Shown one piece after another: positions 16,680-58,700 of a stretch of DNA of 64,000 bases (its first letter is position 1; each line of letters starts with the position of its first letter). The stretch covers positions 32,552,001-32,616,000 of the forward strand of contig OZ249436.1 of assembly GCA_965235115.1 (NCBI GenBank). The letters run 5' to 3'. The notes beneath the pieces are model-generated. The model had not been told where the DNA came from. It did no database searches and saw only the letters and a program-made list of their open reading frames with translations. The stretch is from Laetmonice hystrix (lineage: Eukaryota). A program made the position numbers and the translations under genes.

Positions 16680-19600
16680 TTACAATGTACATGTTAAAAT
16701 ATCTTCTGTGCCTTCGCAAATCTCACACTTAACGGCACAGCACCAATGAAATTTACAGTTGCATTTTCTGCGGACTCGTCTAACGGTCTTTTTCACCTTA
16801 AAACCACAAGAGTAGCACAAGAGTTTACAGCTGCGTCTTTCCGACCGACTGTCTTTGCCGGGCTTGCCCGGATTGACGCAGCGCCGTCCCAGAGTCCCCG
16901 GCGTGCCCAATGTCAGGTTCTTTTTACAATAATCCGGTGACTTTTCGAGATACACCAGTTCCGTTTTACGGATGGTCGGAATGTCTTTAGTGTCCGCCGC
17001 CTTGTGCAGGATGCCGTTCTGAAAGTCGGCCTTGACCGCTCGGGTGTACTTGCGGCGAAGATGGATGCCGACGTTGCGCAGGTCGGCCAGTTGTCGCCAG
17101 CAGGTCTTGGTAGTACAGGCTCCGGAAACGCCATGACACTTGCAGGTCATGCGCATCGTACGCCTCACCGACTGCAACACCCAAATGGTTACTTCATTGA
17201 GAACACGCAGATCTAAGTTAAGCGTGAGAGGGAGGTTTAACAGGAACCATTTGCATCCATTGGCATTGTTGAAAGAAAGACCCAAATCTTGTAGGATTGG
17301 TACATTGTATCTCCATAAAGAGCTAGCTAGCTTCTTAAACACATTGTGTGATTACTGAAGAACAGGTTCAACATCTGCTTATATTTTCTTGCTGCTGCAT
17401 TTCTGTCCATTAAAGGGGTTTCTAGCAGTCTGGTACCATGGCGCGTCCATGTCGACAATATTTTTAATTAATTTAAGCGTTTACCTATTTGGCTAGAGAC
17501 GAGAGCACGCGAATCAAATCATGCCCTTATTTGGATTATGGCGGGAGGGCGGGCGGAGCAGTGCGAGGCAACGCATGCGCCCAATCCCGTTGCTTAGTAA
17601 CGACCGCCCTAACAATGCTAACGCGGGCATGGCGGTCGTTCTACGTTCTCAGTCCATTGAGATGAGAAATATGGGATGTATCGCCTCATTATGGCTCAGA
17701 ATCAACAACAGACCTAGCACAACAATGTTATGGATACGACAGAATGTTTTATCACTCAAGATTTGTTTTCGGTAATGAAGCGACTCTGAGACAAATTATA
17801 ATGTACCTTCGTATCTACTATCATTAGGGCATCAAGTTAGGCGTTGATTTATTTTATTTTTTTATTAGTTTTCGGACAGGTTTATGGATAGATCTATAGC
17901 TTTGCCCTCCCTTTATAGATCTAACCAGTTTCATGAAACCAGCCACAGCCGATGACGCGCTTTTGACCCCATTGCACGTTTTGCTAACGCGTTGAGCTAT
18001 TGCCCATCACATGTAGGCAGAGCGTACAGAGTGGACGTGCTTTTTGCCGAATGGCATATACATCGATTTAGCTACAGACTCAGTAGACGTGAGATGTGAA
18101 ATAAACAAAGAGACATCCCCACCCGCCTGCCTGCCTCGTTATTGTGGAGGTTGACGGTTGCCCTGGCGTCTTTGCCCGTCTCCAGTGCGTCGACAAATAG
18201 TTTAGAGATGCGCTCACCAAAACGAATGTTGTCGCTGCATCCTCCCCAGTTCCAGTTGAGCCCACCTGGCCATCATGAAGAAATAGAAGGATATCATATA
18301 TACGGCTCTTATCTAGATCAATAGGTCCGCTGTACTTTAGTAGAGTTCAAGATAGGCCTATACAGGGTGTCTAAAAAAGTAAGCCATGTTCGAAGGGTCA
18401 TTATGGCCAAACTATATTTCAGTTCACATTTATTATGGTTTTAGCATAACGTAGAGGTTTTGAGCTTTCCATTGATAACTTGGTTATCTTCCTCCAGGCA
18501 TTTATCACAAGCAAGATTTCAAGACACTGGTGCTCAGTGATAAAATGACTGGCAGAAGATAACTGAGTAATCATTGGAAAGCTCACAACCGCCATACTTT
18601 ATGCTAAAACCTTACCACAAATCATAATAAATGTGAATTGAAATAGAGTTTTTTATAGGGAGGTTTTTTTTATCCACCCGATATAATGACCCTTTGAACA
18701 TGGATTACCTATTTTGAGACACCCTGTACATTGAACCAACTGCACATGCACCTTGTCTAATGATCCAAGTCATCTCAGAATAAACTGATGATCTACGGAG
18801 AATAGTTCGGGCCTACTTTAAATTTCTTAACATTGGGACAAAGTTCCAAGAAAGTTTTTAATCATAGTCTTATACTATCAAGACCAGCAAACAAAATTAA
18901 TGACTATTACGGAGTACATGCATAACGTTGTAATCTAGTTGGGTAGGGTAAGACCAGCTAAAAAATATTTTTTAATAATAATTTTAAAATGACATCCCCA
19001 TCTGTCAGGCATAGCAGGAGAGTCACTGCCATCTTTAAAAACCCCACTCTACGTGTATATACAAACCCTGGTATTGTTGTGGACACAGGGTGGCGTTTCT
19101 ATTGCATGCATGGGATTGAAAGATAATGTAGGTCTATGATATACACAGCGAGTCAAAAAAGCGATACACTCAAAAATAGGCTGAGGAATCAAAGATTTGG
19201 CAAAAAAAGGACAATGTAGTAATTGTTACAGAAAGAGTAACTCTTTTGCTTCAACTTGGTCGTTGCCTATATGCGACCAATAATAAAGAAATAATGACCA
19301 TTTTTCAAAGACTCCAAAAATACCACTTGCGCCAAGTGAGACTAGGCTCAATTCAAACAAAGCATGATGGAAGCAATGGAAAGCAATGAAACGGACCATT
19401 GCCATGGTCATGGATTGCATAATCAGTTCAGATCGGTGCATGGATCTTTATAGGCCTGCTGAAACATGGTGCGTCCACAGTTCACGCCCCCATGCGTTTG
19501 GGCAAATTCACTGATCAATGGTCCGTTTCACTGCTTTTCATTGCTTCCATCATGCTTTGTTTTAATTGAACAGGCCTATAGTCTCACTTGGCGCAAGTGG

Positions 19601-22600
19601 TATTTTAGAGAGTTTTGGAAAATGACCATTATTTCTTTATGGTCGCATGATCAACCACCATTCACCAGCCTATTTTTGAGAGTCAGTATAGTTTTTTAAC
19701 TCTCTCTATATATGCGCGGTAGGGGTTGGTCAGTTAAGTGAGCCCGAGACAGTTGCTCACATGCATGCAGCATGCGCAAAGCATGAGCGTATGTATGGTG
19801 GAATCACCGTTTGGCGGCGCATGTGTCTGGGCTGGCAGCGTCGCCGGGGGCTCACCTCTCTGGCCCTGGCGGCTGTCGTCGCAACCACACCGGTCGATGT
19901 CCCCCAGACTGCAGTTTCGGGTCAGCGTGTACACGATGCCCGCCGCACTCATTGCTTGAACGAAGGAAGTCTCACGGGTAGCTGCAGCAAGGAATTATAA
20001 AAAGTAAAGATGATAATAGATTCGATATGTGAGTATAGAGGTGGGTTGATTCAGGCAGTGTGGAGAGCATTGTCTTAATAGGATTGGAGGGTCTAATTTG
20101 TGGAACCAAAACGCACCGCTTATCAGATATCTGCAATCTTTTAGTGATTATAATTATTTCCCCCCTAATTTCACCGAACAAATCAAAATCAAATGAATTT
20201 AAATCGGATAATAACCGTATCAAAACTAAATTGAAATGTAACACTTTACCTATAGCCTCAAAACTAACCCTATAACATCCTAACCTCTGACCCCGGACCT
20301 CCCCCTATAACTTACCCCTTACCCCTACCCCCAATGGGAATGTTACTACGGGTTGATAACCTGACATGGACTGACCGTGCCTGGGGCCACTGGCACTGAA
20401 GACTGAGGTGGCTGAGCGCGGACAGTTCCACCTGTCCCACCGGAATTGGTACTGGCACTCCTCCATGCTGGCCTGGGCTCCGGCCGCCACACTCTCAGCA
20501 AACGCCAAGTACGCCTGCCGGAAAATAAAGTCACACACAAACAGTGGCATTGATAACGTATATACCGAGATCTGACCATTAAAACGGCAGGCCATGCAGC
20601 AGCGGATAACATTGACTGAGTGTCGTCCTAGTTGCCAGCAAACAGGGACTGACATCGTGGGTCGTTAAAACTATACCTCCAATGCGAACTCACTGCTGTG
20701 TACAATTCGTCGTGAATCTGCATGCCGTTTGATCAAATTGTGATATTCCTTCTCATCAAACCGCTCCACTGCTCACTTTTCTTTTTGATTTTTATCCCAT
20801 ATATTTAATAAATCAGACATTTGAAAATGCCAAACGAGCAGTTTGATTTCCGTTGCCTGCAATATTGTTAGTCCTAATGCGCATGCGCACTGAAGGCCAG
20901 TAGGGGAGCATATCATCACACAAGGAGCCAATCACTCCTCCATTATGGCCCGAGATCCGGGCCCCCTTCTTAGATAATAGCTGCTCCTTAAATTTAAAAT
21001 GGCCGCCGGCCGTGACGATGTTGAAGTGCTCGCTTGGTTTGAAAAACCACCTGAATCTGCTTTGTAGAAGGACTTGAGCTAAATTCATTGGACTCAATGG
21101 CTGAAAACTTCATTTGAAATGACTGGCTGTGTGCGCTATAGCATCCCACTCTGCGCGTTTTAAAATTCTCTCATTTGTGTAGCTTTGGCAATAGGCCGAG
21201 TATTGCGAGGCCTATCACAGAACGGATAACATATCTATATAGCCGCCTGTTGATGTGTACATTTTGATATCTCTCATTTTAATGACTCCAAAATGCAGAC
21301 ATGGGCGATGAACCAATGAATTTGATTGCCTGTTAAAATCAATGCCAGGTCAACAACCTGCCATGAGACGTTCGCTTCATGGCAACTGGAATGTTGAATT
21401 TCATTACATTTCTCCCGTTCGACACGTGTGTAAACATTTATTGATTTATGTAGTCTAAGGCCTTATCTAACCTAACAGCCCATGTCTGCATTTTGGAGTT
21501 ATTGAAATGCATACTTGGTGATTGTTTTAACGATGTATTTCTTGTGTTGTTAATTTCTGAAATCAACCATAATAGCTAAACCTACTTTTTCGTGAATAAT
21601 TGATACACCTTTCCATGTTCCGCACCGCGTTTCCGTATAAATACGGGAGTTGAGCTATACATAGAATGCTAGACCGGGTGAGCAAATTCCTTTTCAGATC
21701 CGCTCTAATCCCTATAGCTCCGGTAAATCTATTTTACCACTGCTGCCCACGTCCGGAGACCGACTTGTTGTCTATCCCAACACTTCCAGGCACACTTTTT
21801 CCGGGTGTGGCGCCAGTTTCTCTGACTCTGCCGAAACTTCCCAGAAGAGAGAGATACGCTTCGAAACCAGACACTTTGGATCTTTATTATGTCTACCAGC
21901 AAACCAGGTGCAGGAGAAATATAATTATCGCGATAGAGCACTTGACCTCTCAGCATATACGATGCTATAGTTGGAACACTGCAAGTGTATTGCCTCCTTG
22001 TGTGGCAAACGCATTGGTATAGGGCTTCTGATAGATCTATCGCCGGTCACTTAACTTAGATCTATAGTGTCTGGGACGATATCACCGCAAACACGTCTTG
22101 CAAGGAAACAGGTCAAAACTAGAAGCTGACACACCCTGTGGTATGAACTAAAGCATGAATTATTCGGGATCTTATTTTCCTCTTTGCTTACAGCGTCTAT
22201 TGGGGCGGAGTTTAGGATTATGGTCCTGACCAAAGAAGGCCTATTATATGGTTTGTACTTTTTCTGACAGATATTGGGATACGGAGCCATTGTCTCCCAG
22301 CATGTGGCCCTTAGAACACTTGTCCGTGGTATGTGGATATTTAGGACACAGATGACCCGCCATCCCAGCGTCCGTTTTCCTTACTCCAATTTCAGAGAAA
22401 CAGACCGTCGTTCTTCACGGGTATTTACAAGATGGAGCAACCAGGAGGGGTAAAAAGGGCCTTGAAGACACCGCACTAAAATGGCGGTAATATCTTTCTG
22501 CTGGTTAAAAATCTTGGCCGGATTGGCCGGTCTGACTTTCTCCTGTGATACCGATCCTTTATTTTGATAACAGGAGCGCGGGGCCTGACCGTGTGTATGC

Positions 22601-28430: not shown

Positions 28431-29748
28431 TGAATTTGGCAGTAAGGACATAAAACTAAACTGGCTATAATGTATGTTTCAAATACCAATTCCGTCCGAA
28501 TTGGAAGGAATAAAGCTTTCAGTTGACCACCAGAAGCAATTCCAACGTATTCATTAACATAAAAGGCTACAACTGAAATATTAGTTGCATTTGACGGTTC
28601 GTTGGATATATTTCATGCCTCTTAACGGGATGCGTAATGAAAAAAATACCACAAAGTTCCATTTGGCGATTTTTCCCACCAAAACCATAAAGACCTGGAT
28701 ATAATAATAATAACATCCATAGAATATATTGTCATTATAATCAGTGATTTTGCAATAACCCGAGTTGAAATTACCATTTCCTCTGCTATGGCATACGCAT
28801 ACGCAGTGAAAACACGACCGTCAGCCTGTTTCACAATATACCATTTTAATACATTTATTTTAAACTGCAGTAGCCTACCTAATTCAGTTTATTAACAACA
28901 TCTAAAGTAGGCATACATCAGACATTCAATTAATAAAGAAATAGGGCCCAGCCGCAGAAGTATCACAACAGAATTGACAAGCACGTTAACTTTGGTGCTT
29001 CCCATTCGCTATCAATACGAGGCTGTTGTAAAGTCGCTCTGCGAAACAGTCTATAATCTGAAAGGTTTATCTGTTCTAATTGAACGCAAATAATGCACAA
29101 CAGGGTAAAATATAGTTGAATGTCATTATATGATAAAGGAAGCTCATAAGTATAAAGAGTCAAGCCCCTCTCAAAACGTCTTTCCAACCGTCACATATAG
29201 GCAACCCCATGGGGGGGGGGGGGGCTATACATGTAAGAGGTAGTTTAACCAACGGTTCCCAAAGGAAACTTCAGGTCAATATTTCTAAAGACCCAAAGCT
29301 GGCGAAAAGTTTACAGATATACTATTCCATATTTGCCCCCCCCCCCACCCGATATTTAAGTCTGCTATACTCTATACCGCAGTATACGGGATTATTTTAT
29401 AATACGGCTATCATGCGTATGGTACACTCAGAATACAGTTTGTTTGGCCTTATAGATGCTGAATGGTCGCAGAATACCAAGTTCAATAATGATTAAGGTC
29501 ATAAATACATGTATGTATATGTTAATCGGTATGTAGGTAGATACATACGTCCGTTTATAAGATTACGAAGTACATGTCAGGTCCGACAAACCGTGTGGGA
29601 GAGGTGAGATGGCAAAACTTACTGCGAAGTATCAAGTCATGAGAGGTCTTTCTGGCATAAATAGAGATCTAGGGCTATACTTTAAAAATCTCAGTTATTG
29701 TGCATATCCAAGCCGGTAAAAGTTTGACCAGAAATAACCGGCCAAAAG

Positions 29749-30855
29749 CTAATCCCACTTCAAAACCAATTCGTCTCCTGCCATCTTAAGTGTGCTATTG
29801 ATACATTCCCGTTGTAGGGTTTTACAGAGCCAAAGAACATCGTCCCTGGATGCCTTGTTCACCCGAAGTTTCTTGGTTTGTGTTGGTACCAGAGTAACAT
29901 CCACCAAATGACCATCACTGGGATCGAGGCTGACAAAGTACATGAGGGCAAGATCTCCCCGATACTCCTCTTCACCACCAATACCCTCATAATCGTTCAG
30001 AAAGTCTCCACATCCGTACATAATCAGCTTGCCGTTATATATTTCTAACGCTTTAGCATGATGGGAGGAGTGGCCATAAACAACGTCAACGTGAGCTTTG
30101 TTGATGAGGGCCTGGGCGAATTTCCTAAACATTGGGTCTATTTCGTAGCCCCAGTTACTGCCCCAGTGGATTGAATACACGACCACGTCGTTGTGTTTCC
30201 TCTCGGCCTTGAGGCGTTCTTTGAGCTGACTGACCACCTTGCTGGAGAGTTCCAACACGTTGATACCACACCTATCAGATGCTGCCTGCCATTCATGTGG
30301 AACGCCGCTCGAGGTATGACCCCCCGCGAAGAGGAGCACGCGACCCTTTCCCGCCACTGGTAAAATGGTCGCGGAGCAGGCGACGTCACGACTCCGTCCG
30401 GCGCCTGCGTATTTGATATCGGCTTTCTCTAGCGTTTCTAATGTCTCCAAGAGTCCCTCAAAACCCCAATCTGCCGTGTGGTTGTTAGCCAGAACGCAAC
30501 AACTTATCTTCGCGGCTTTCAGAACTTCCGCGTTTCCCGGGTGCATCCGATAGTGAATGCCTTTCATTGGCCAGGCATTGTTACACGTAGTCACAGCATT
30601 CTCTAGATTTATAATACGCAAATCAGGGTTCTTTTCGGCAAGGATCTGTAGAGCATCACCCCACACATAGTCAACTGGCCTTTCCTCCTTAGGAGGTAAC
30701 TGCCCGTTCTGAATCACTGCAAGTCGCACATAGTCATGAGCATTCAGACCGTTTCCTTCGTGCAGCCTAGGATCGCATGAATAGTTGTTGATCATGTCGA
30801 TTCCACGAGCCATCATTACATCTCCACAGAGGAACAAAGTGATCGGTTCAGCCAT
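29749..30855 (-). CDS. CapA/PGA_cap family (poly-gamma-glutamate synthesis accessory, metallophosphoesterase fold) protein, 368 aa, intronless CDS
   Basis: Motifs GDVM, INLE, LANNHxxDWG, SIHWG, GHSSHH and YGCGDFLNDYEGI. A polypyrimidine tract plus AG acceptor lies 7 nt upstream of the ATG (30863-30864), implying a 5'-UTR intron. Confidence 0.92.
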   Translation of the reverse strand: MAEPITLFLCGDVMMARGIDMINNYSCDPRLHEGNGLNAHDYVRLAVIQNGQLPPKEERPVDYVWGDALQILAEKNPDLRIINLENAVTTCNNAWPMKGIHYRMHPGNAEVLKAAKISCCVLANNHTADWGFEGLLETLETLEKADIKYAGAGRSRDVACSATILPVAGKGRVLLFAGGHTSSGVPHEWQAASDRCGINVLELSSKVVSQLKERLKAERKHNDVVVYSIHWGSNWGYEIDPMFRKFAQALINKAHVDVVYGHSSHHAKALEIYNGKLIMYGCGDFLNDYEGIGGEEEYRGDLALMYFVSLDPSDGHLVDVTLVPTQTKKLRVNKASRDDVLWLCKTLQRECINSTLKMAGDELVLKWD

Positions 30856-32920
30856 GTTAACCCTAGAAAAGAAATAAAGAAATACATAAAAGTAATTATA
30901 TCCATATTCTTAGTTTTGATGCCCGCAATATAAAATTGCACCAGACATTTTGTCAGGCAATGATATGTCTTCTTTACCAAAAATATTGTATACATTTTGT
31001 ATGCAAATTACTCCTAGGCCGAAGTTCAGCTACTATCCCCAGGTTTCTATTTCATACGCCGCAAAAACTGCCAACTTTATCTCAGTGTTATATTTACTTT
31101 GTGGGAACACAGGGTAGGTGGAAAGAAGAAAATTTTCGGATCGAGGTGGATAAATATGGGTCACCCTGTAAATATAGACGTACATGTCCTCCACAGTCTG
31201 GCAAAGCAGGAGAAAAGGCTGCAGTGTACCGTATAGCAAGTAGGCCTAATGGCAGTGGGAAACGGAGACAAGTTGAACGTTGTCGATATGTTGCTTCTTA
31301 AAATGCCAATATTTTAAATGTCAACTTGTAAGGTAGAGAGAACATAACTCCCTGCTAACTTCATTAATATATTGATGGACATACCTGGGGGATTTATACC
31401 ATTTTTTCAATACCTTTGAACACTTTCACTCTGGCTTTGAAAAAGGGTGAAGGGGACATTCCTTCTCATCTATGCCTATGCACGAGAGGGTCAGTGTGAA
31501 AGATATTTAGTACGGTACTGTAGTGTAAATAGGCCTACTGCAACAGTGCAATACTGCCAGCAATAGGCAAGCTTAGCAAGCTCTACCTCCATGAACTTGC
31601 CAAGGGCAAGGACTGGCTGAGGCTTACTACGTAAGCTATAGACTAGGGTGGCTCCGAGTCTGTTTTACCAGCATTTCATACTGAAATCTTCCATGTAGGC
31701 CTATATAATATTATTGGCTATGTATGAAAATATCTTCCTAAAATGTCATATTTGGCGTCTGGAAACCCTTTTAATTTACCACTGATTTTTGTTTTGCTCC
31801 AAAAATGGCCTGCGCCTCCCGCGGTTTATAGTACACGAACGCGACTTAACCCAGTACATGGAGGACTGCGGTAGTCTCAGCCCCTGAAGCAGTGTCCAAG
31901 CAACTTAAATTAGGCAAAGCCAAGTGCAAGGCGACAGAATCCACTCCGAGACCGAGTCCGAGCCTTCACCATGTTTCAAGCCAAGGCCATAAATTGGAGG
32001 TACCCGTAAAAATGTAGGGATTCTTTGTCGGGGCTAGACTTCGCTTTCGGATCACGCACCGTAAATTCGTAATTGTGCCACTGTAAGAACGAAGTGCCGT
32101 AAGTAATAACACCTGTGCTGTGGTAATAACCTCCGAAACTGGTGAAAGGCCCGTTGGCCGCTGGCGTTGACGTTGTTCACTGAACTTGTTGACTTCGCTT
32201 GTCCCGACAAAACTCTACACTCACTGAGTGTACACTGCCACTGCCAACCAAATCTCAAAAGTCTTCCACTGAGGAGACTCCTCATTACAAAGACATGTCT
32301 GTTTGGCTTAAACTTAAAGTATAATACGGCCTGTCACTCATGTTTTGTTTAAAGAATAACCCGAAAAGTTTATGACCATCATTTTGTTCACAACCTTGAC
32401 CTTCCCGTCTGAAAATGGCAAAAATAACAGCGACTAATTGGTTAGAGATACATGAATCCGTTCACGAAAACTACGACGACTCCAGCACGTGGCGCCGTCT
32501 TGCGGTTCGTAGAAGACTGATTGTTTGCTTCAAACCCTTGGCCAACAGTGAGTTCTCTGGAAAGAGATCAAGCCTACACTACAAAAAAAGACTGGAATAT
32601 CTCTTCTGTCTACCACTTAAGGATCATAATTAAATGCACCATAACTTACATAAGTGCATAACTTGCAAAAGATGGTACAACACGGCCAAAGATACAGCTT
32701 AAAGTAGGGTTAATAAAAAACCAAAGGAGTAGGCCTAGTTCACACGGTAGTGGCGCCACCATAAAATTGCACTAGTGCGCCATCTCGTGTCGTAGGTAGG
32801 GAAATATCAACAGTTCCCGGGAAATTGAGAGAAAGTCAAAACTTAAGAATAGACCAGCCTAGTTAGGGATGCGATTACTTCATGTTGTAGTTCAGCCGAA
32901 GTGGAAAGAAACTGTCTGCG

Positions 32921-35900
32921 ATGTCCAGTAGCCCTACAGACCGAAAGATCGGCACCAAGCATGAGGGCGGCTTTAGGTTGAGCAAGGATTCCTTTTATGG
33001 CGGGAAAAAGTGAGTGGACGGGACATGCAAGCCTGGCAGGGCCAGAGTCAGAGATATAGCCTACGATAAATTTGTTCAGTTTATTGATTTCGCAGTTTAC
33101 ATGGTTTAGTGATCCAAAGGCATTTAAAGTAACTCCGTACGTTACTGCCCTAATGAAAGTGAACCGATTTCAAGTGGTGTTTTTTAAAGAAATGGGGGGG
33201 GGGGGGCAATTAAGAGGGGGGCAAATCAAATGCCCCCCAGAAATTTAGCTTGCCCCCCCCCCCAGTGTAAAAATGGGCTATAAAGATCAAAGCGTACGAC
33301 ATATATATATACCCGAGTGTCTGTTTGTCCCCACTTTGCCCCTGGGGATTTTTAGGTCCGGCGCCGCCCATGATTTTAACATTTTGCCCCCCCCGAACTT
33401 AAAGTGATAGACTAGATAATGCGGCCCAGATAAGCGGGGAGGTCATGACATTGAGAGCCGTCTGAAAAGTTTCAGGCATATAATGTGTGATCATTTAATT
33501 TATATAAAGCCACCTGTCAGCTTCCATGCTAGACGGAGTATCGGAGTATATGTGAGAGGCTACTTCCATGCATGCTGTCTGCCCTGTCAGGGTAACAGAT
33601 TTGTGACTTCACATGGGTGGGCCCAGAGCTCAGTATTCTATAGGCCTATATCAGAGTTGAGTAGGGCAGGGGTCGAGTGGGGTCAAGGGATCGAGTGGGG
33701 GTTTCAGATTCCTGGATGATTGAAGATGGGGGGGGGGGGGGGGGGGGAGAGGGATCTGAAAAAAACGATTTTTAAAGTTCCCGCAAGTTCCCGGGGAAAA
33801 CTTGAATAAGGGGGAACTTGAAATTGTTACAGCGGGGCAAGGCTATCCCACAGTTTTCTAAGCAGTGAAACCACCGGGGTTTACGGTTTACCCCTCAGCG
33901 CCTCCACCTCTCTGGATTCCCTTTTTTCCATTATGATTCCGACTGTGCCCCCCTAGGCCACCCCCTCCTGACTGTGCCCACCCCCCCCACCCCCCCAGGA
34001 CACCCCTTCTGGAGCTGCCCCTTAATTATCCCATCCCCTACAGGGGGATGGGATCTTCAGATTGTACGGTTTCGTCTTCCCTATTATTATTCTTTGCGTC
34101 GTAGTAGTAGTAGTAGTAGTAGTAAACAGTGGCGTCTATCTCAGTCAGTTTTCAAGATATCTGAATCAAATTTGGCACACATCTTGACCATGACAAGGAC
34201 TGGTCAGACAATGAGTTGTGACATATCACGTGACGTGACGTATGACGTCACGTCATGACGTTCATATTGGGAATTTCCAAACCCCATCATGGCGTTTTAA
34301 TCAGGCAAGGGTCTAGTCTAACATGGACCCTTCATTTGTCATTTGACCTTGAACTTTGGGAGAACTGGGTCCTCAGTCACAAATCTCTTAAATCGCTACT
34401 CCTTCTTCATTTTTTGGTGAAATTCGACAATATTAGGCAGGAGGACTCTCTAACATGAGCTTGTCTCAAATCATCAAAAGATAAGCGATTTTCCTAATAT
34501 TCACTGAATCACGTGACTTTGAAATTTCGAACAATTTTTAATTTTCTAGAACTTGTAAACGGTGCCAGATATGGCATTGGTTACTATTAAACACAGATAA
34601 GAAGTCATATATGCTCTTTTATGATACATTTTTTTCAGGTCACGTGACCATTTTTAAAAATTAGAGGGAAAAAACAAAAACAAAAAGAAACGTGACTCGG
34701 CCTGGGATTGAACGCGGGACCCTTCCGGTAGAAGTCCAAAAAAATAGGTGACTCGGCCTGGGATTGAACCGGCGACCCATAGCATATGAGTCAAGACACT
34801 TATCGCCAGTGCTACGCCATCTGACAAGCTAATACTGGATTGAACTGGTACTGATTACCACAGCCAGTGAACCTATATTTTGTGAGGGCTATAACTTGCT
34901 ATCACTTGGTATTGTCATCCTTAAGGTCACGTGACCTGTGACGTCGTAAAGATGTCATCGATATGTTCTAAGGGATATAACTTGTTAATGCTTGAAGTTA
35001 GACCCATAGTTACTATTGAACACGAATAGGAAGTCATGTATACTCTTTCGTTTGGCATCATTATTTCTTAGGTCACGTGACCCATGACATAACGATGTCA
35101 TCGATATTTTCTCAGGGTTTTAACTTGTAAATGGTAGGAGTTAGACCCATAGTTAGTATTGAATATAAACAGGAAGTCCTCATTATGTTCTTTCAATTGA
35201 CACCAAGATTTATTCTATTGTGTGATCTATTACATCCTTATGACGTAACTGAGCCCTTCTAAGGATTGGTAGAAGCCTGTAACTAGTAAACGGTGCTAGA
35301 TACACCTATAGTTATTTTTGAACATGAACAGGAAGTCCATTGAGATCAATATTTATGATGTAGCATAAGGTCATAATGACGTAACTTCCATCTTCTAAGG
35401 CTCATAAGTCGTCACGGGTGCAAGATAGTACCATAGTTATCCCTATTCAGAACATGTTACATGGGACACCCCGGGGATGGGATCCATTGTGGTACTCCAC
35501 AACGTATCTAGTTATTATAGGTCCCCTGCCAAGAGTTCTGGCATGTGTACCCCTTGGTTTGGCTATATGTTCTCAACCAGACTTCATTTGCAGTTCCCTA
35601 GCAAGCAGACAAGTAGATCGATGGAATCCATTAATGTTCTTGACCCATAATGTAAAAATCTTCCTTTTCTAACGACCATGCATCAACTTTGCATCCCTGT
35701 ATGTGCTGTGGCTGTAGTTGCTAATTAAGTTAGTAGGCCTATATAGCTGCCGGAACAAGTTGCCTGACTAACTTTGAAACTGAAACTTACATTAAATGTA
35801 CGTAACATGCAAACATGATTTGCAGGTTGAAAATTGTACCTGTCCAAGTGCGTGTGGAGCGACAGGTTCAGCAAATCCATGAGAAACTAGTTCCTCTTCC

Positions 35901-38900
35901 TTTCAAATCAAGGTAGGTTTTAATTATATAATCGAGGAACTTCTTATAGGGTCTCAATTTTTACCTTTTCTTTAAAAGTTTTTTATATTTTAAAAAGTGT
36001 CACCTTTTAAGCATTGTATTGATTCAAAATTACATACCAGTATCATGTAAAGTGTTATTTCTAAATGAACTGAATGTGATTTACTGTTGATATTCTTTTT
36101 CAGTTTGTTAGGTCCATCGAGGCACTGGCGTGTATTTTTTAGACAACAAGAAGCATTTGATTTTGCCCGTTCTGCTGCCCAGGTATGTACTAAGAGGAGG
36201 GTATGGAGTATCCAACTACAGAATTTTATCATTTGCTGGGGTGGCTCTAAGAATTCAGGGGGTTAAAAGAGGGAGATATGGCCGGGCTGAGCCAGATCAA
36301 TTCGGAAAGTTGTATGGCGAAAAAAGAAAACCCAAAGGGGGGGGGACCCTTGGATCTGCCAGTGATTTGTACAAGTCAAGTGTAATAAAGGTGCCCTTTG
36401 AAAATATATGTATTTGTCATTTACATGTACACAATTTACAAGTTTGGAAGAGTTACTTATCATGTTGGACCACTGCCATATTCTTTGTTCCTAAGTTGTT
36501 TTAAACTTTGTTTCTGCCCAAAATTTAATATTTCCTGTTTTTTGTTTTTTTTAAAAGGATTTGAAGGTTTTCTCATATGAAAGTGATGTTTTTCCTGAAA
36601 GACATGGACAGCGGTTGTTCTTGGCAGCAAGTATTCCTCACTTCTGGCATTACTACAGGCAAGTTGTTTTTATACTGCGAGTTACATTGTTGATAACTAA
36701 ATAGATTTGAGTGAGTATATTTTAGATTATGCTGTAAAGATATGTGACCAAATTCAGTTTGAATTTAAGAAGTTCTTTTGAAGGGATATTGTATAAGGAA
36801 TTTTAGGTTTTAAAGATTTTCTTACTGGAACTTTCAACACGTGTCTGAAATTTTTTCAGCCAACTGTCCTCGCCCCATCGACATCACTATGAGGTCATAC
36901 CTGAAGGTAAGATAAAAGATTGAAAATGAATCATTCATGTCAATACTGTATTTTCCCTGTTTAAATAGTTGCAGATTCAGCAGTAACATGAAAGCAAAAA
37001 AAGCACAATAGTTGTATAACTATACAAATCTTGCAAGACTTTGTTTGTATTCTTGCAGGTGCAGTGTGTCATTTGTACTTTGACCTTGAGTTTAACAAAG
37101 TCATCAATTCAGGCTGCGATGGGGTTGCCCTTGTGGCCATCTTTATAAAGGTAGGGAGAATTACTTTGTACACATTGATAATCATAGGCATTACTATTAT
37201 CCAAAAAGTTTAAGAACAAAACTATTACACGTGATCTGAGAATTTGAGTGTCAGTGGTCTTCAAAATAGAATTGAACTTCTAGTATCACAAAAAAATGTA
37301 CTTGATATGGAATACTTGATGACATTTATCACTCATAGTATGTGTGCGGCATGCTGAAGGAGTTGCACAACGTTGCCTGTTCCCCAGATGATGTGCTTCA
37401 GCTTGATGCAAGGTTTGTCTTAGAAGTTTGCTAAGGTTGTTCTTGGGCTTCAATGGAAACTACTTTCCAGGAGGGTAGTCATGACATTATCTAGCCTCGG
37501 ACAACTCTAAGCTAGAGAGGACCCCGGTCTCCATGTAAAGTGACTTAAGAACTCCCATAGTTGGCTTGAAAAAAGTGAGCTATTGCCTTAAATTGTAATG
37601 TAACTAATGCTTCTGCAGGTCACTCAAGTTGATTTTGGTTTGTGTCAGTGTTTGTCTTTTTTTATGACTGCAGCACAAATGAAAAGTTCAGCAATCACTT
37701 GGTGTTTCACCTTGACAATGCTGTTTTCAGGGATAACATCCATGCTGGTAGGTGCTGGAACTGTCTTACAGAAGTGTTAGCTGACTGTACAGTACTTAGT
37801 TAGAAAGGGACATGACTCACAGGAGAACTGTCTTGGGCATCCTTAGACTGTCAGTACAGACTACAAGTATTAATGACTCCAAAATGGAGACATGGGCTCT
37901 TAGGTTAGATGAGGCCTTAGAGTACTTAGACTACATAAATCAATAAACGTATTCTCACAGCAATGGAGAAATCTAATAAAATTCAACATTCATGGTGCCC
38001 GTTGTCGCTATGAACCGAATGGCTCATGGCTGGTTGTTGACCTGGCATTGACTTGAACAGCCAATGAAATTGATTGGGCGATGAACCAATGATTAATATA
38101 GTCCAAGGCCTTATCTAACTTGAGAGCCCATGTCTACATTTTGAAGTCATTGAAATGCGAGATACTGCCTGTTTGCTTTCAGGTATATATGGTTCAGCTG
38201 TATTGGATTTATGAGATCTAGCCACCTGTAAATGTTTTAATTCCTGTCACTGTAACCATTTGCTATTACATACTTTGTATACATAATCATTTTCCAATAG
38301 TGAGAACCTAGAACTATTCTTATGGACAATTACATGTACCAAATACTTTTTCTGCAAAATTTTACAACAGTCCTGTTTCTGGTATTGAGCAGGCCTCTTT
38401 GTGCATCACCTCTGTGATGTGCTATTGGTAACAGTCGAATGCGTCGCCAACAACGGAAGCACAGCAGACCCACCCGTATGCACCCATGAAGTGAAATGCG
38501 ACAAGGGCACAGCTCCGAAGGATGCCAATGACAGCCCTGATGGTCATCATGCTCATGTCTCCAGCAAAGATGGCCCAAAAGAATGTGATACGAATCAACC
38601 CTGGACACCTTGTGGTAGAGACTGCAGGTCTCAAGGCATGGACCAAGTGTGGCTTCATGGCAATGGTCTGTCTGTGGATGATCTAGCCAGGCTCATTGTG
38701 AAAGATAAACATGGAAATAAAGTCTTATTCTGTGATACAGGTAAAGTCTGACAGGTGCAGCATGCCAGTGATCTGCTTTATAGAACCTTCAGCAATCCAA
38801 GATCTTGTGTGAGAACCCCATATTGGATTTTTGCCATTTATTACATTGAGCATGAGGCAATGATCAAAACTTTAATGTTCTCTTGAACACTTACCTGAAG

Positions 38901-41068
38901 CCGTTTTAAAATTAAAACAAAAGGAATCTAGTACTATACATCATTAGCTTTATCCCACTGTGTGAGTTCATTGTTATCTTATCGAGTCAATAGTCAGGCC
39001 ATTAAATGTTTCAGGTGTCTACACAAAGAACAGAAACTTCCGCCTGTTTCTTTCATGTAAGCTTGGCAAAGCGAACCCCCTACTGATTGCAGATCAGAAC
39101 CTGTATAAACCCAAGGCCACCAAGGAAATGTTGCCGATTGATATCAGGAAGCAACTGTTTCTAGATTCTCTCGTCACAAATATACCGTGAGTTAGTTTGA
39201 CAGTTGTCTTACATGTTTGTGTGCAAGCGATTTGTTGCACACAGGTTATAGCCATACTTGAAGGTGCACCTCCATACCTGCCAACCACCCCCAATTTAAT
39301 TGGAATGTGCTCGATTCTTACGTTTCCAGATCACAAAATATCGCGACTTCCGATTTTTGCCAAAAGAAAAAAAAAAGAAATTTGTTGACCATAATGATTA
39401 ATTTCATGATTGATAGCTAATAATGCCAACGTTTAAGGCTCAAAACAGCCCTTGCAAACACCACCTGCACTACTCACACAGGGGGACTGCCACTGGACCC
39501 TGCAGGGGGGCTAGGTGGCCCCGCTCGACCTCCGGGCAGTATCGTGTTCCTATTTCTGAATTTCTAATGTTGGCAGGTATGCGCCTACCTTCAGTATTTT
39601 ATTCATGTTTATCTTTCTGTTAATGGGAAACGTTTTTGTTGACAGCTTTATGACATTTAATGAAACTCCTTTTTAATGCCGAAACACTTACACACACATA
39701 CAATTGCATTCTGTGGTTCTTTGTGACAGCTACACCGAAGGGCTTCGCTTGCTGTCAGGAAGTGGATCCAGGTGTAACTGTGGAAAGGAAACTCGCTTTG
39801 CTTCTACAGTCTCAAGTCCTAAATCTGGTGGGTTTCCCATGGGCCTGTTATTTTTCTGCAGAACATTATGCCTTAAACTAGTTAGCATGAACATTATGGC
39901 TTGAAAAACGGTTAGACCTTATATGCTGCCTTCTGTTACTTTAGGACTTTGGGATGTATTTGGTGGCAAAATATATAAATATATAATGTGCTTTGGTCTC
40001 TTACTAGATGCAGGCTACATGTAATGTCAGGCTTCAGGGATGTAGTTGTTCACAGTAATAAAGAGCCCCTCCTTGCCTCGTTTAAATTGTTTTCCCTGAC
40101 TGGAAATCTCGAACTCAAGAAAAGCTGCCCTGGTTGATTTGTTTTCCCCTGCATGCAGCATTCGTCGAGGGGATGAGTATTGACTCTCCTTACCCTGAAG
40201 TGGATAGATTCGTGTCCTCAGTGATCCACTGGGGAGGTGTAGTTGGTACCATACGTCGCTGGGCCTACTTTCAGCAAGGAGAGCTACTGATCTACGACAT
40301 TGCACACAATCGATGGTGTCACAACATTGGCCGAGCACATCACAGTAACAACATAATGTAAGATTCCCTCACTTTCTTTTATTGTTGTGAAACTACCATT
40401 CTAGGTGAAACATGAAGGATTCTATTGTTAATTAAATACTTGAGAACTTGATTTTTTTACTTGCAATAAAATTTATAATAATTTGACTTTATGATAATGA
40501 TAATGATAATTTCAGATTTCCTTTCAAGATGTAGTTTTTATTTACTGTAACATTTGCATTTACGAATGCAGGGTGGTTGCTGACCTTCAGCGAGGAGTGT
40601 ACTACCAGAAATGTCATGACCCATCCTGTAGGGCAGTCAACTATAAGTCTCCAGGTAATGCACTGGTACAATTGACACCTTACCAATATTTGTGTGTTTG
40701 ACATCTCTACTAATAATTAGTGTGAAGACAAAAGTTCAGTAGAATGAAAGGTATACTTTACAGGACTGATTTCCTTTCCAGAGTGGCCTCTGCCAAACAA
40801 TGTCCTGCCATCAAACTACTTTCAAGATGGGAGTGATTTTGAGCTCGGATATGACGTAGCTGATGATGATACTGACTTAGATGACGATGTGTTGTTGAAA
40901 GCCGTCACTGACCTAGAACAAAGCCAGAATAAACAGCATGAAGACTATGTCCAGAAGCAAAGAAGCAAAAACTGCTGCGAAGAGTTTGAGCTTGATGACC
41001 ATGACCTTTTGGAGGCAGTGACAGATCTGGAACAGTCCGTTATACCGGAGAAAGTTGCTTTGAAGTAA
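32921..41068 (+). CDS. PRIMPOL: DNA-directed primase/polymerase PrimPol (~14 coding exons)
   Basis: Exons give WRVFFRQQEAFDF, GQRLFL, HHYEVIPEGAVCHLYFDLEF (AEP motif I DxE), EKFSNHL (SxH), FCDTGVYTKNRNFRL, SPYPEVD, zinc finger RWCHNIGRAHHSNN...YYQKCHDPSC, and an acidic C-terminus. The first exon (32921-33009) is phase-consistent but less certain. Confidence 0.93.
34022..35513 (+). mobile_element. Helentron-associated (HINE/DINE-1-like) non-autonomous element in PRIMPOL intron 1
   Basis: 5' subTIR ATCCCATCCCC (34028) with nearby inverted copy (34044), (GTA)n microsatellite, internal ~120-bp degenerate repeats with GTCACGTGAC, 3' subTIR GGGGATGGGAT (35473), hairpin TTGTGG-TACT-CCACAA, and terminal CTAGTT. 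Confidence 0.75.
34692..34815 (-). repeat. Two tandem tRNA-derived (SINE-head-like) fragments
   Basis: Minus strand 34815-34747 has A-box-like TAGCACTGG and B-box GGTTCAATCCC followed by AGGCCGAGTCAC. A partial second copy lies at 34737-34692. Confidence 0.6.
37870..38164. mobile_element. Dispersed MITE family A, copy 2 (PRIMPOL intron)
   Basis: AATGACTCCAAAATGGAGACATGGGCTCT ... AGAGCCCATGTCTACATTTTGAAGTCATT; internal GGTTGTTGACCTGGCATTGA shared with the other copies. Confidence 0.85.
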
Positions 41069-51823: not shown

Positions 51824-53630
51824 CTAGCTGAAGACTGCTCCACAATTTGGACAGTGACGTTGTCTCATTGCTAAGCAGCAGAGTATACCAAGGGGGAAGA
51901 ACAGGATAGCGCAGCAGACACCACAGAGGGTGAAGTCATCTTCTAACACTCCAATCTGAAACAGGGAACATGCCAATATAATATTTACTCAGTTAGGTTG
52001 TTAAAGTGAACATACTGAATGTCAAATGCCAAATAATGGGAAATTAAGCAGAACTAATTTCATGCCATTATCCAAGGAAAGACAGCCTCAGAGCTTTTGG
52101 GATATTTATTATAAACGTCATGAACAAACAATACGATCATATTTTAAATATCTTCATGTGAAATGTTAGAAACTTCCAAGTTTTGGTTGTAATTGACATT
52201 AACGGCTACGATTCTCAATACTCACCCGACAGGCTGGACACCCTCCAACAACAACAACAGACGGTTGGTGTTGTACGGTGATTGTTGTGCCAAGGTAAGA
52301 CGGCTGCTGTCCCATCACAGGCTGGTATCCAGGGGGCCCCTGATACACTCCTGGTGCTGCTCCACTTTGATAACCCCCTGAAAAATTCATCACTCTCTAA
52401 CATTAGATTCAGACTAATGTTGTCTCAGGTACATTCAATAATATTCCTCCATATACCAGCACCTATAATATCAAATACAGCATAAGATGAAAACTTATTA
52501 ACAAAATAGAAAAAAAGGCAGAAAAGACTTGGGGACATTTTATGATAACTATCATATTTATTTAAACGACTGTGGACTGAAACAAGTATGATTTTACCAC
52601 TTGATTTAGCTGAAAGTGGTGAAAATTTGGACACACTGACAGATTCTAATCACATGCAGCTTGAACCTAAGTGATTCCTAAAGTAACAGCTGTAAAACCA
52701 TTTGCAGTGTTGAATGAAATCCCATCCAGATCTTCCTCATAATATCATAATACAAGACCCTGACACAGCCACCAACTGGGTAGGGACTACTATACCTGGG
52801 GCAGGGTTTCATACGGGGGAGGGGGGGGGGGAAATGGGGGATAAATCCCCTGCATAACTTGGGAAAGGGGGATATATCTCCCCATCAACCTGCAGAGCAA
52901 CTTTTTTCTGTCGGGAAGTATGAAAGGCAACTAAGCAGGAAAGCGTCTATGTATAAAATGTTATCAATCCTCCCTTATGATGTTCAATGTTGAGTTGGAA
53001 GTACTGCAGGGTAATGTTCTGTGTGAAAAATGATGGAATTTCGTTGATAGATTTGGGCGAGTTTTTGCTCTGAGATGCTCAGAAAACATATCTCCTGAAA
53101 AAAATTCTGGGGGAGGGTGCCCAAAGGGAAAGAGTGCCAAATGAAACTTACTAGCCTTCGTTTACAGCGAGAGTAAAAAAATCTTTTTGAACTGTATCCC
53201 CCTCAAATAGTCTGATCATTGCTTTTCAGGGAAATTTTACGCAATATGACCCATTCACTTCTTAGAAATCACCATGGATGGATGGAGGAATGCGGTATTG
53301 ATGGAGATAAAATCAGACGGTTTTTGGAATCATGGTTCTGCAAGCAGTAATGTATATAAGTTCCTTTTTGAGACCTTCTTCATCTCTATCTGTATGTCCG
53401 GCATATTTGTATGATTTGAAATAAACCATACCTGCATATGGTTGTTGGTATTGTTCTGGTTTGTATGCACCAGCTGGCGGTTGACCGTAGGCTCCCCCTT
53501 GGGTCCCATAGGTGGCGCCACTAGAGCCTGCCTGATTCATGAGGCCACCTGCAGCCCCAGCAGGAGGTGGGGCCGCAGTGGCTTCCATGTATGTTGGGGG
53601 CTTGTCTTCTCCACTGACTGGTTCAGCCAT
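51824..53630 (-). CDS. BRI3: Brain protein I3 / membrane protein BRI3; exons 53630-53432, 52377-52226, 51955-51824
   Basis: Pro/Gly/Tyr-rich N-terminus with PPTY, then VVVVGGCPACR|IGVLEDDFTLCGVCCAILFFPLGILCCLAMRQRHCPNCGAVFS*. Confidence 0.93.
52802..53110 (+). repeat. Dispersed repeat family B, copy 2 (BRI3 intron)
   Basis: Homologous to 28047-28430. Confidence 0.85.
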
Positions 53631-55725: not shown

Positions 55726-58700
55726 ATGCCTGGTGCCAAGCTTTGGGCCATAAGTGGCCGAGGTAATGTCTACACATTATCCACCAAAGGTCGGCGTTGG
55801 TGTCAGGTACCCAATCAGTCACGTTCATTACGTGGATTCAAGAAGGTATCGGCAGGCATAGAGAGTGTCTGGGGGTTAGGATGTGACCACCAAGTCTATG
55901 TGTTTGTACCTGGCTCTGATCTACCCATTCGATGCCAAGAAGCAACCTATGAGAACGAGGTACCGTAGTATTTAAGTCCAACTTAAATTTCATAAGTATG
56001 AAGTCATGTTAAAAGCTGGATGTAATTCTTGTGAAAAAAGTGCAAGTAATTCAAGGTAATTGATATAGAATATTTGAAAAGGCCAGCCTTTATTTGTACT
56101 AGATGTGTCAATTATTCTGTGACTTCCTAATGCTATATAATTAATTATTCCAGTTGAGAGAAAATCTATTAATTAGATTTGACATATACAATGTATTGCT
56201 TTCAGTGGGTCAGTTATATTGAAAATGTATCCATGGGGGCTATTCTGAAGAAAAGAATTTATATGCACATTTTTCTATATGCAGTTGTAATGGATAAAAT
56301 GGATAATGGGACGTTGTTTGTTTATGGTCTATCGACTCTATGGTCTGTTTTATCAGAGGTGGATCCCATCAAGGGGATGGTCCAGTCATAACCTGCTTCC
56401 AGTGGATCCATGGCAATGGAGCAGTGAGGATGGCCTCCGACACCTCCCAAAGGAGGACTTCACGTTACCCTCGGATCACTGGCAATGGGAGAGTGACTGG
56501 TATGTCGATGAAAACGTTGGGGGCTACCTGACTGACAAAGGGGTAAGTGTTGATAAGGGCTTCTGGCAAAGGATAGGTGACTCAAGATTCAAGGTTATCT
56601 TTCATATTATTACTCTTAAACTATTAAAGGCTATAAAAATATTGAGTGTTTTTTAAGGTGTTGTACAAAAACAGACTACCTCTTGTAGATTGAAGTTAAT
56701 ATTAAAATCTTGTTTTCCTACCCAGGGCTGGCGTTATGCTACAATGGACTTCCATCATGACTTTACACACCAGAAAAAGCTCAAGTCATGTGTCCGGAGG
56801 AGACGCTGGATCCGATATCGTCGATATGTGGCCACAGAACGATGGGGCAGGGTGAGTCAGAATGTGGTTTATTGGCAGATTGCCAGATTTCACATGATTC
56901 ACCTGGTCAGGAGCATCAACTTTGACAATAATTTCTTTTTCTTTTTCAATCTTATGCCAAAGTAACATGGTTCCTATGGGTCAGGGAAGCCATGAAAAGG
57001 TCTGTAATTTTATATTGGGACCTCCCGGGCTGGGAAAAGTCCCCTGGGGCCTGTCTTACTAAGGCTGGTTAATAACCAGATCGTTACATTAACATTTGAG
57101 CGAATGGAAGTTTGCTGAATACAGCCACCATTCACTGCTATGTTAACTAACTTAACGATCTGGTTATTAACCAGTCTTAGTAAGCAGGCCCCAGGAATTT
57201 TATAAATATGTGCTCAAGTCTGGGAAAAGTCCAGAAATTTGACAAACAGACTCAGATTCTAGGTGGCTGATTCACAGTCAGGGTATCGTTCTTTAATCAT
57301 CGTCGATATTCCATACTAAGAAAAACAGAAGGAGACCTGAACATGGTCCTGGAGAAAATGATAAAGATCAGAAAAAGTTCAGGAATTTTGGAAAACTGAT
57401 ACTGTGGGAACCGTGAAAGTAAATAATACCCCCCTTGAATTTCCAGAAAAATTCATAACATTCATATCTTTTTCCCTTTTTCTGATGACTTAAGAGAAAG
57501 TTGTGAAATGTGGACTTTTTTATGATGGTTTTATATATTATTACTACTACTTTCTTGCTCTCTGTTTAGGTTCCCAGCTTACATGTTGACCCTCTTGAAG
57601 AACCGACAGTTGATGTGGCTATTGGGGGCCATGATCTCATAAACCAGGCTGAGGGGTATGTCAGTGCTTGGGTGGTCACCATTAATGGCAGGGTAAGCAA
57701 GCTCTTACCTGAGAATAGGAACACCAGACTACCTCAAACCAGTGAACAATCAACCTGTCATATGGATGCTGTATAGAAAGTTTACATCTCATAGAATAGA
57801 GACTTGTTATGCAGTTACGTTTTGGTATGTGTACAAAATGTCAAACATTGTGCTCCTGCATGTAAGGCATGGATAACCTTGGGGGGGGGGGAGGGGGGGG
57901 GGAGGGGGGGGGAGGGGGGGGGGCAAGTGCATCTTTTACTCTGGACCAACCTACTCAGTAGTCTGTCAGACCTGGCATTGTATGTAATGACTATATTTAC
58001 TGAATATATAGGAAGATCAGTTCCAGATTCCCTAAGCTAATATTTGGCTGTTTTCTGTCTCTCTCTGACAGCTGTTGTACCGGTCAGGTGTATGTAGGAA
58101 CTGTCCAGAGGGGTCCAGCTGGGAGGTCGTACGGACAGCCGAGGGTTGGGAAGTCCTCAGTGTCTGCGTTGGACCGTCTGGTCTCCTTTGGGCTGTGACA
58201 TGGTCTGGTACAGCTATTGTACGTCTGGGCTTATCATGGCAAAAACTTATGGGTGAGTTGGCTTTTAATTCTGATGTAAGGTAAATGATATAGATAAAGT
58301 GCATATGAAATTTTGTAGTCACTGAAGTTAGCAAGTAGTATATGGAAACGGTTATTAGAATCAGCAGTTATTTGGTAAGACAGGATTCCATTTTCATTAA
58401 TTACATCAATATTTTCGATCAGGACAAGGTGAAGAAAGTTTGAGAAATATCTGAGATATTTGGACCGCTTGTGTTCTCTAGGTGTATCATGGGCTGAGGT
58501 AGAGCCGCCAGAGGAGGAGGACAAATTGGTTCAGGTGGCAGTTGGGCAGAACGCCGTGTGGGCTACAACAGTCAGTGGGAAGGTAAGGGCGGATGCTGCC
58601 AATATACAAGCTCTAAATGTTACTGGATTTTCATGTTTATGACGTGAAAACATGATGATTTAGTCAGTAGAGTTGTTGAAGTGAAATGTACCTCAAGTTT

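Follow-up and report, generated by a model that had tools for sequence, protein, structure and literature searches.

How did a gene of bacterial CapA type come to lie between the animal genes Wnt8 and PRIMPOL in Laetmonice hystrix, and what does its product do there? We examined this question in a 64,000-nucleotide stretch of contig OZ249436.1 (hereafter the window, meaning the whole stretch analyzed), in which the CapA-type gene occupies an uninterrupted open reading frame (ORF; 29749-30855, minus strand) of 368 codons plus stop. Two answers emerge, of unequal strength—judged from its sequence relatives, the gene is not a transfer into a single lineage, belonging instead to a family common to annelids, a brachiopod, and corals; and its product may be a soluble peptide epimerase that needs a metal and acts in the manner of MslH, a reading based on a structural model and on conserved residues, to which we give a probability of about 0.45.

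The identity of the gene is plain. Its protein matches Pfam PF09587 (PGA_cap) over residues 6-289 with an E-value of 7.5e-70 and 235.8 bits, against a gathering score of 27, covering the whole profile (1-255 of 255). Because it also aligns with bacterial homologs from end to end (for example, over residues 5-367 of 368), we regard the ORF as a CapA-type coding region without an intron. The motifs YRMHP, HWGSNWGY, and GDFLNDYEGI are all present in the translation, and the best 19-residue hydropathy is 1.42, compared with 2.4-2.5 for Bacillus PgsA/CapA, marking the absence of a transmembrane segment. The N-terminal membrane anchor of the capsule-operon type is therefore absent from this protein, though an upstream coding exon might still add one. 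An earlier note on this DNA, made from the letters alone, had described just such an intact, intronless ORF with these motifs, no transmembrane segment, and a place between Wnt8 and PRIMPOL, and on all of these points it was right: Wnt8 exons lie at 16.7-20.6 kb and a PRIMPOL exon at 37061-37150. No second CapA-type copy occurs within the 64-kb window, and the flanks of the gene show no Rfam match and no framing repeat. The ratio of observed to expected CpG is 0.87 in the gene, 0.82 in Wnt8, and 0.32 in the PRIMPOL body (35800-39000), which suggests that the CapA-type gene, like Wnt8, is not gene-body methylated.

The closest relatives of the protein are animal ones. Among 120 homologs listed, the 42 best score 624-430 bits at 52-74% identity, whereas bacterial-type matches reach at most 424 bits at 50-56%; the genera to which some of these 42 could be assigned, either outright or by way of cluster members, were Paralvinella, Acropora, Montipora, Porites, and Oculina, and a profile built from 36 of the best homologs added Capitella, Lingula, and Owenia. 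Identity to the named animal homologs is 50-59%. Query and animal homologs formed one group in FastTree (46 of 124 rows, support 1.0) and in a quick mixture-model tree (39 of 87 rows; Shimodaira–Hasegawa-like approximate likelihood-ratio support 87), while IQ-TREE, run on 50 rows under LG+G4 with the longest branches left out, recovered a 24-row group with all named animals except Globodera (94/88) and a 13-row group joining the query with Capitella and Paralvinella (99/98). The animal group is set off from 134 bacterial-type rows at 13 columns of the alignment, at 10 of which the query carries the animal residue. The label "animal" was assigned after the first tree and the match ranking and is hence not independent. 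A metagenome scan yielded 80 loci at 46-53% identity, none recognizably animal, and the only close match in phage and viral collections was a single locus, which lies on a 1.9-Mb record. Separately, three viral-collection contigs, one of them named GVMAG (giant virus), carry a CapA-like segment of 31-32% identity.

Since the orthologues in annelids, the brachiopod, and corals group with the query, the suggestion of the earlier note that the gene was transferred horizontally into this lineage does not survive. The same data bear on bacterial contamination or a recent lineage-specific transfer, for which one could cite the intronless coding region and the 50-56% identity to bacterial proteins. 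We consider this barely credible: animal homologs outscore bacterial ones, the query is nested among annelid sequences, a strong candidate splice acceptor lies upstream, GC content at third codon positions is 0.53 against 0.54 and 0.61 in two host exons, and bacterial operon neighbors are absent from the locus.

An old gain from bacteria, at or before the cnidarian–bilaterian split, appears to fit best, and the simplest account has many losses follow it. Within animals the gene looks vertically inherited: a constraint holding Spiralia together was not rejected (approximately unbiased test, p-AU 0.138), so that the vertical pattern that the earlier note set against horizontal transfer is partly present, within animals. 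Several features of the trees weigh against this account. The best tree departs from the species tree, placing Owenia and Lingula outermost, outside corals and the other annelids; 15 of the 23 "animal" rows of the IQ-TREE run have no species name; and six eukaryote-looking sequences stand near the animal group without support. The alternative to a single gain by an animal from a bacterium is an older eukaryotic gene, either lost very widely under vertical descent or handed from one eukaryote to another, or else several transfers among animals; it concerns origin alone and suits any chemistry of the protein. In its favor are the positions of these six sequences (P0242, P0252, P0270, P0304, P0323, and P0394, judged eukaryotic-looking by N-termini and composition) beside or inside the animal group, the misplacement of Owenia and Lingula, and a tree holding Globodera with the named animals, which was not rejected (p-AU 0.244). 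On the other hand, the six require 3 changes on the tree, and in none of 200 bootstrap trees (0%) does a branch split them off from all other rows; Globodera groups with bacteria (95/94), its relative appears in a table of PMC4901422 as horizontally acquired, and the family is overwhelmingly bacterial. We hold an older eukaryotic origin to be rather unlikely. Atlas searches returned bacterial CapA clusters only. Two of the six, P0304 and P0323, have an apparent N-terminal signal and a C-terminal hydrophobic tail.

The start of the gene may mark an exon boundary shared with its homologs. Many homologs begin at the same Met as the window protein, and coral RefSeq isoforms differ only upstream of that Met, which suggests, as far as proteins can tell, an exon boundary at the conserved Met common to the homologs. 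Upstream of the ORF, the minus strand reads TTTCTTTATTTCTTTTCTAG followed by GGTTAAC-ATG, with an acceptor AG exactly 7 nucleotides (nt) from the ATG, the distance given in the earlier note; when all 7656 AG dinucleotides of the window are ordered by a crude score for pyrimidine tracts, this putative acceptor comes second. We predict that the gene is spliced to an upstream exon. Its promoter may be common to it and PRIMPOL: the putative first exon of PRIMPOL, judged by eye, begins at 32921 (plus strand), and the two genes would then be arranged head to head. Among the homologs, longer coral isoforms (P0039, P0179, P0194, P0028, and P0040) begin MG(S/T)S(K/R/N)S, which we take to resemble an N-myristoylation signal, and longer Paralvinella, Lingula, Oculina, and P0394 models have basic, acid-poor, mitochondrial-presequence-like N-termini; the animal family may thus be dual-targeted via alternative first exons. 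In another homolog, P0043 (347 aa, on a 619-kb contig), MLYILFS precedes the conserved GNGL as though read in from an intron, and this gene may have gained an intron within its coding region.

What the protein does is suggested chiefly by its predicted fold. MslH is the only solved relative by sequence, and an AlphaFold2 model of the CapA-type protein (predicted local distance difference score 88) aligns with it at Z 37.0 (root-mean-square deviation 2.3, 314 aligned residues); the next fold, a YmdB-like phosphatase, follows at Z 17.7 (3.7, 236 aligned), and Foldseek gives E 8.8e-21 for MslH versus 9.2e-10 for the next fold. According to the excerpted text of PMC10406935, residues D11, E44, N87, H88, D91, H259, H261, and H295 are essential in MslH, which holds a single Ca on E44, N87, H259, and H261 and epimerizes a C-terminal residue with the dyads H88/D91 and H295/D11. 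In the alignment, query N125/H126/D129 correspond to MslH N87/H88/D91, H230 to H259, and H265 to H295, and D12 and E85 are assigned to their equivalents by motif only, so that seven of the eight essential residues are matched, both His/Asp dyads among them. These positions are highly conserved across 404 family sequences (D12 in 361, with 41 gaps; E85 in 401; N125 in 400; H126 in 401; D129 in 401; H230 in 400; H265 in 393). A 2024 paper reportedly showed PgsA to be an epimerase; our literature search, in which subscription papers were not covered, found no PgsA epimerase assay paper. CapA has been proposed as an epimerase in the part of PMC8179263 available.

If the protein works in this way, one metal of Ca or Mn type would be held by E85, N125, H230, and a substitute fourth ligand—the invariant S263, H266, or water—and would grip a peptide or gamma-glutamyl oligomer by its C-terminal carboxylate. 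The dyad H126/D129 would then take away the alpha-proton, and H265/D12 would give it back from the opposite face, so that L and D forms interconvert. Several points speak against the epimerase. A fourth metal-ligand His is absent, with G232 at the position of MslH H261 and S263 at the Bacillus/YmdB position, and the His of Bacillus PgsA is likewise missing (GHHPH there, GHSSH here); relative to MslH or YmdB, the metal-binding motifs are thus incomplete, although the earlier note had called them complete. Identity to MslH is 17-23%, the NCBIfam MslH model NF038314 scores 49 bits against a cut-off of 700, and likeness of a modeled fold does not by itself show function. We know of no partner ligase or substrate of the protein in the animal. 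Moreover, query E85-N86 resembles YmdB E39-N40, where Asn40 is a second-metal ligand, and the bacterial neighborhood of the subfamily leans to nucleotide and RNA enzymes, not peptides, with phosphoribosyltransferase at 7 of 88 loci, RtcB at 6, CBS at 6, phosphoribosyl pyrophosphate synthetase at 4, PolX at 4, and archease at 3 (17 representatives of the 29 recurrent neighbor groups besides CapA were scanned in Pfam, and the rest judged shadow frames).

These last two points belong to a competing reading, in which the protein is a metallophosphoesterase of the YmdB kind, or else a phosphodiesterase for 2',3'-cyclic nucleotides, and has nucleotides or RNA ends as its substrates. Every fold match after MslH is a phosphoesterase, a related metallohydrolase, or a nuclease domain; H126/D129 corresponds to the YmdB catalytic dyad in the available excerpt of PMC10406935; and RtcB, archease, phosphoribosyltransferases, PolX, and Mut7-C occur among the bacterial neighbors. 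Of the seven YmdB ligands D8, E39, N40, N67, H150, H175, and H177, six might, by motif, have counterparts in D12, E85, N86, N125, H230, and H265. Yet MslH is far closer in fold, the query has no equivalent of YmdB His175, where S263 stands, and Asn86 is not conserved in the family: 373 of 405 relatives carry Thr there, and Asn occurs in B. thuringiensis PgsA as well. The neighbors, too, are loose, none recurring in more than 7 of the 88 loci. A phosphoesterase is possible, though we doubt it, and the metallo-hydrolase identity given in the earlier note becomes the competing reading, the nearest solved relative being an epimerase.

An epimerase need not be foreign to amino-acid polymers, to which the subfamily is linked by two bacterial proteins that fuse its CapA domain behind Mur-ligase/cyanophycin-synthetase-like domains (P0249 by Pfam, P0250 by cluster names). 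P0249 has 1295 aa and P0250, from Lysobacterales, 760 aa, each with the CapA domain C-terminal; either is possibly a one-gene system for an amino-acid polymer with D residues. The window gene, by contrast, is not, as far as sequence comparison goes, the CapA of a capsule operon, since identity to the operon CapA of Bacillus—which lies between pgsB/pgsC and gamma-glutamyltransferase—is about 25%, the membrane anchor is lacking, and capB and capC are missing: tblastn with B. thuringiensis PgsB and PgsC drew a blank both in the window and across 91 loci of the subfamily (median 6.3 kb), while a control locus was positive. The remark in the earlier note that the gene acts without capB/capC partners in the window is thereby borne out.

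These findings bear directly on whether the protein is an accessory subunit of an animal poly-gamma-glutamate (PGA) pathway, as proposed for cnidarian pgsAA, with a host ligase encoded elsewhere. It shares the Pfam family, has coral orthologues, and could combine such a role with epimerase chemistry. PGA fills nematocysts and is credited to pgsAA in the parts of PMC5375639, PMC4083563, and bioRxiv 10.64898/2026.08.23.746573 available. Besides the low identity, the missing anchor, and the failure of PgsB and PgsC to match, capC occurs in one of seven incomplete carrier genomes, and no Nematostella, Hydra, or Clytia name appears among the matches listed. Annelids have no nematocysts, another point against an accessory role of this kind, and we think it quite improbable.

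A probable subgroup can be named. NCBI calls the coral homologs "polyglutamine synthesis accessory protein MT0602," and MT0602 is presumably Rv0574c, a gene of the DosR dormancy regulon, which counts on the side of the phosphoesterase. The description as a domesticated bacterial-type gene is supported, and by way of these names it probably falls in the Rv0574c/MT0602-like subgroup.

The features of the locus are collected below.

Table. Features of the CapA-type gene and its flanks (window coordinates)
Feature	Position	Strand	Remark
Coding region in one exon (368 aa) of the PGA_cap/CapA family, MT0602-like subgroup; fold predicted as calcineurin-like and nearest to MslH	29749..30855	-	
Seven exon bases GGTTAAC between acceptor and ATG: 5' untranslated region, or in-frame if the upstream exon is coding	30856..30862	-	
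Predicted 3' splice site (polypyrimidine tract plus AG), 7 nt upstream of ATG	30863..30882	-	rank 2/7656 AGs, crude score
Region with candidate upstream donors: best CAG/GTATGT at 31384, TAT/GTAAGT at 32649	31379..32649	-	consensus match only
Candidate polyadenylation signals AATAAA 28893, 28859; ATTAAA 28850; ~860-900 nt past stop	28845..28893	-	consensus match only
Flanking Wnt8 gene, 4 exons mapped	16680..20571	-	
5' part of flanking PRIMPOL, apparently head to head with the CapA-type gene	32921..37150	+	exon 37061-37150; first exon by eye

Both flanking genes are of animal type. Wnt8 has at least four coding exons; in a 24-row Wnt tree it is, weakly (85/82), sister to the annelid Ridgeia and stands apart from the groups of chordates and of arthropods, and its highest identity is to the nemertean Lineus. 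Judged from this gene, the host is a spiralian and probably an annelid. The PRIMPOL exon matches human PrimPol (E 1.6e-6), and one PRIMPOL intron contains four copies of a ~59-nt repeat spaced ~145 nt apart (34549-35338) together with a tRNA-like duplicated stretch (34681-34778). Farther away, a TECPR1 gene runs from 56306-56653 (plus strand) onward (match to 8P5P, E 3.5e-17), beside the start of a Pro/Gly/Tyr-rich gene at 53313-53630 (minus strand) that we presume may be BRI3-like. At the other end, a DDE_Tnp_4 transposase (808-1695, plus strand) faces a protein with a weak viral alkaline exonuclease match (3433-4695, minus strand), and the two are likely one transposon.

As a discovery of horizontal transfer, the gene is not new, and the outline is in print. 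Denker et al. 2008 (PMID 18812079) described how an animal ancestor received a PGA-synthase subunit by transfer, as cited in the parts of PMC4083563, PMC5375639, PMC5566210, and bioRxiv 10.64898/2026.08.23.746573 available, and that study may already list bilaterian homologs. In a plant-parasitic nematode, the Globodera gene GROS_g07961, called "PolS," is listed as horizontally acquired with its function not known, in the excerpt of PMC4901422. Our literature search, in which subscription papers and supplementary tables of horizontal gene transfers were not covered, found no paper on the family in annelids or brachiopods, no functional work on the animal MT0602-like proteins, and no epimerase reading of the animal family, and the NCBI entries for the coral, annelid, and brachiopod homologs are automatic annotation only. 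What is added is a wider animal range and a testable epimerase hypothesis.

Taken together, gain and chemistry would make this the first animal counterpart of MslH-type epimerases, gained once before the coral–bilaterian split, kept in annelids, brachiopods, and corals, and making peptides with D residues or D/L gamma-glutamyl polymers inside cells—a combined picture that we put forward tentatively, as possible and no better than doubtful. Were the gene the same as cnidarian pgsAA and the epimerase reading true, pgsAA would epimerize residues instead of synthesizing PGA, and the true ligase behind nematocyst PGA would have yet to be found. Few animal L/D peptide isomerases have a known sequence (two are proposed in the available text of PMC10089201), and a soluble, conserved animal protein with MslH-like dyads is a directly testable candidate. 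Its fit to known neuropeptide isomerases is poor, because residue 2 of the substrates is where the Aplysia activity was assayed (PMC11277431, in the excerpt available) whereas MslH acts at the C-terminus, and because no signal peptide is evident here. Annelids and a brachiopod now join a transfer often cited as a story of cnidarian stinging cells, and this wider range speaks for a role that is more general.

Set beside known systems, the protein resembles MslH, the lasso-peptide C-terminal Trp epimerase (PDB 8GQ9; PMC10406935 and PMC8179263, in the parts available), in whole-length fold, both dyads, and three of four metal ligands; it differs in the low identity, the loss of the H261 ligand, and a score far under the NCBIfam cut-off, and the window gene has no precursor peptide or cluster for peptides made on the ribosome and modified after translation (RiPPs). 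The YmdB-type metallophosphoesterases (4B2O, 1T71, and 1T70) share the calcineurin-like fold and the NH..D dyad but give a much weaker structural match and have a two-metal site with the His175 missing here. With Bacillus PgsA/CapA of the pgsBCA/capBCADE operon it shares PF09587 and the GDVM, NNHxxD, HWG, and GHxxH motifs; the Bacillus protein, however, is membrane-anchored, linked to pgsB/pgsC, and has GHHPH in place of GHSSHH, a motif found in 423 of 465 fetched sequences. Cnidarian pgsAA (Denker 2008, as described in the citing texts) is also of the bacterial CapA family, and an animal ancestor is said to have received it by transfer. Globodera "PolS" (G. pallida A0A183BY44) has the same subfamily motifs and groups with bacteria, so that, although a shared origin was not rejected, it is probably an independent transfer. 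Nearest of all are the animal MT0602-like, CapA-domain proteins—Acropora XP_074638289.1, Montipora, Porites, Oculina, Paralvinella KAK2159114.1, Capitella CAPTEDRAFT_143582, Lingula LOC106164428, and Owenia—which fall in the same tree group and share its motifs and a core starting from the same Met, and of which the coral models differ in N-terminal extensions that the window protein either lacks or hides in an upstream exon.

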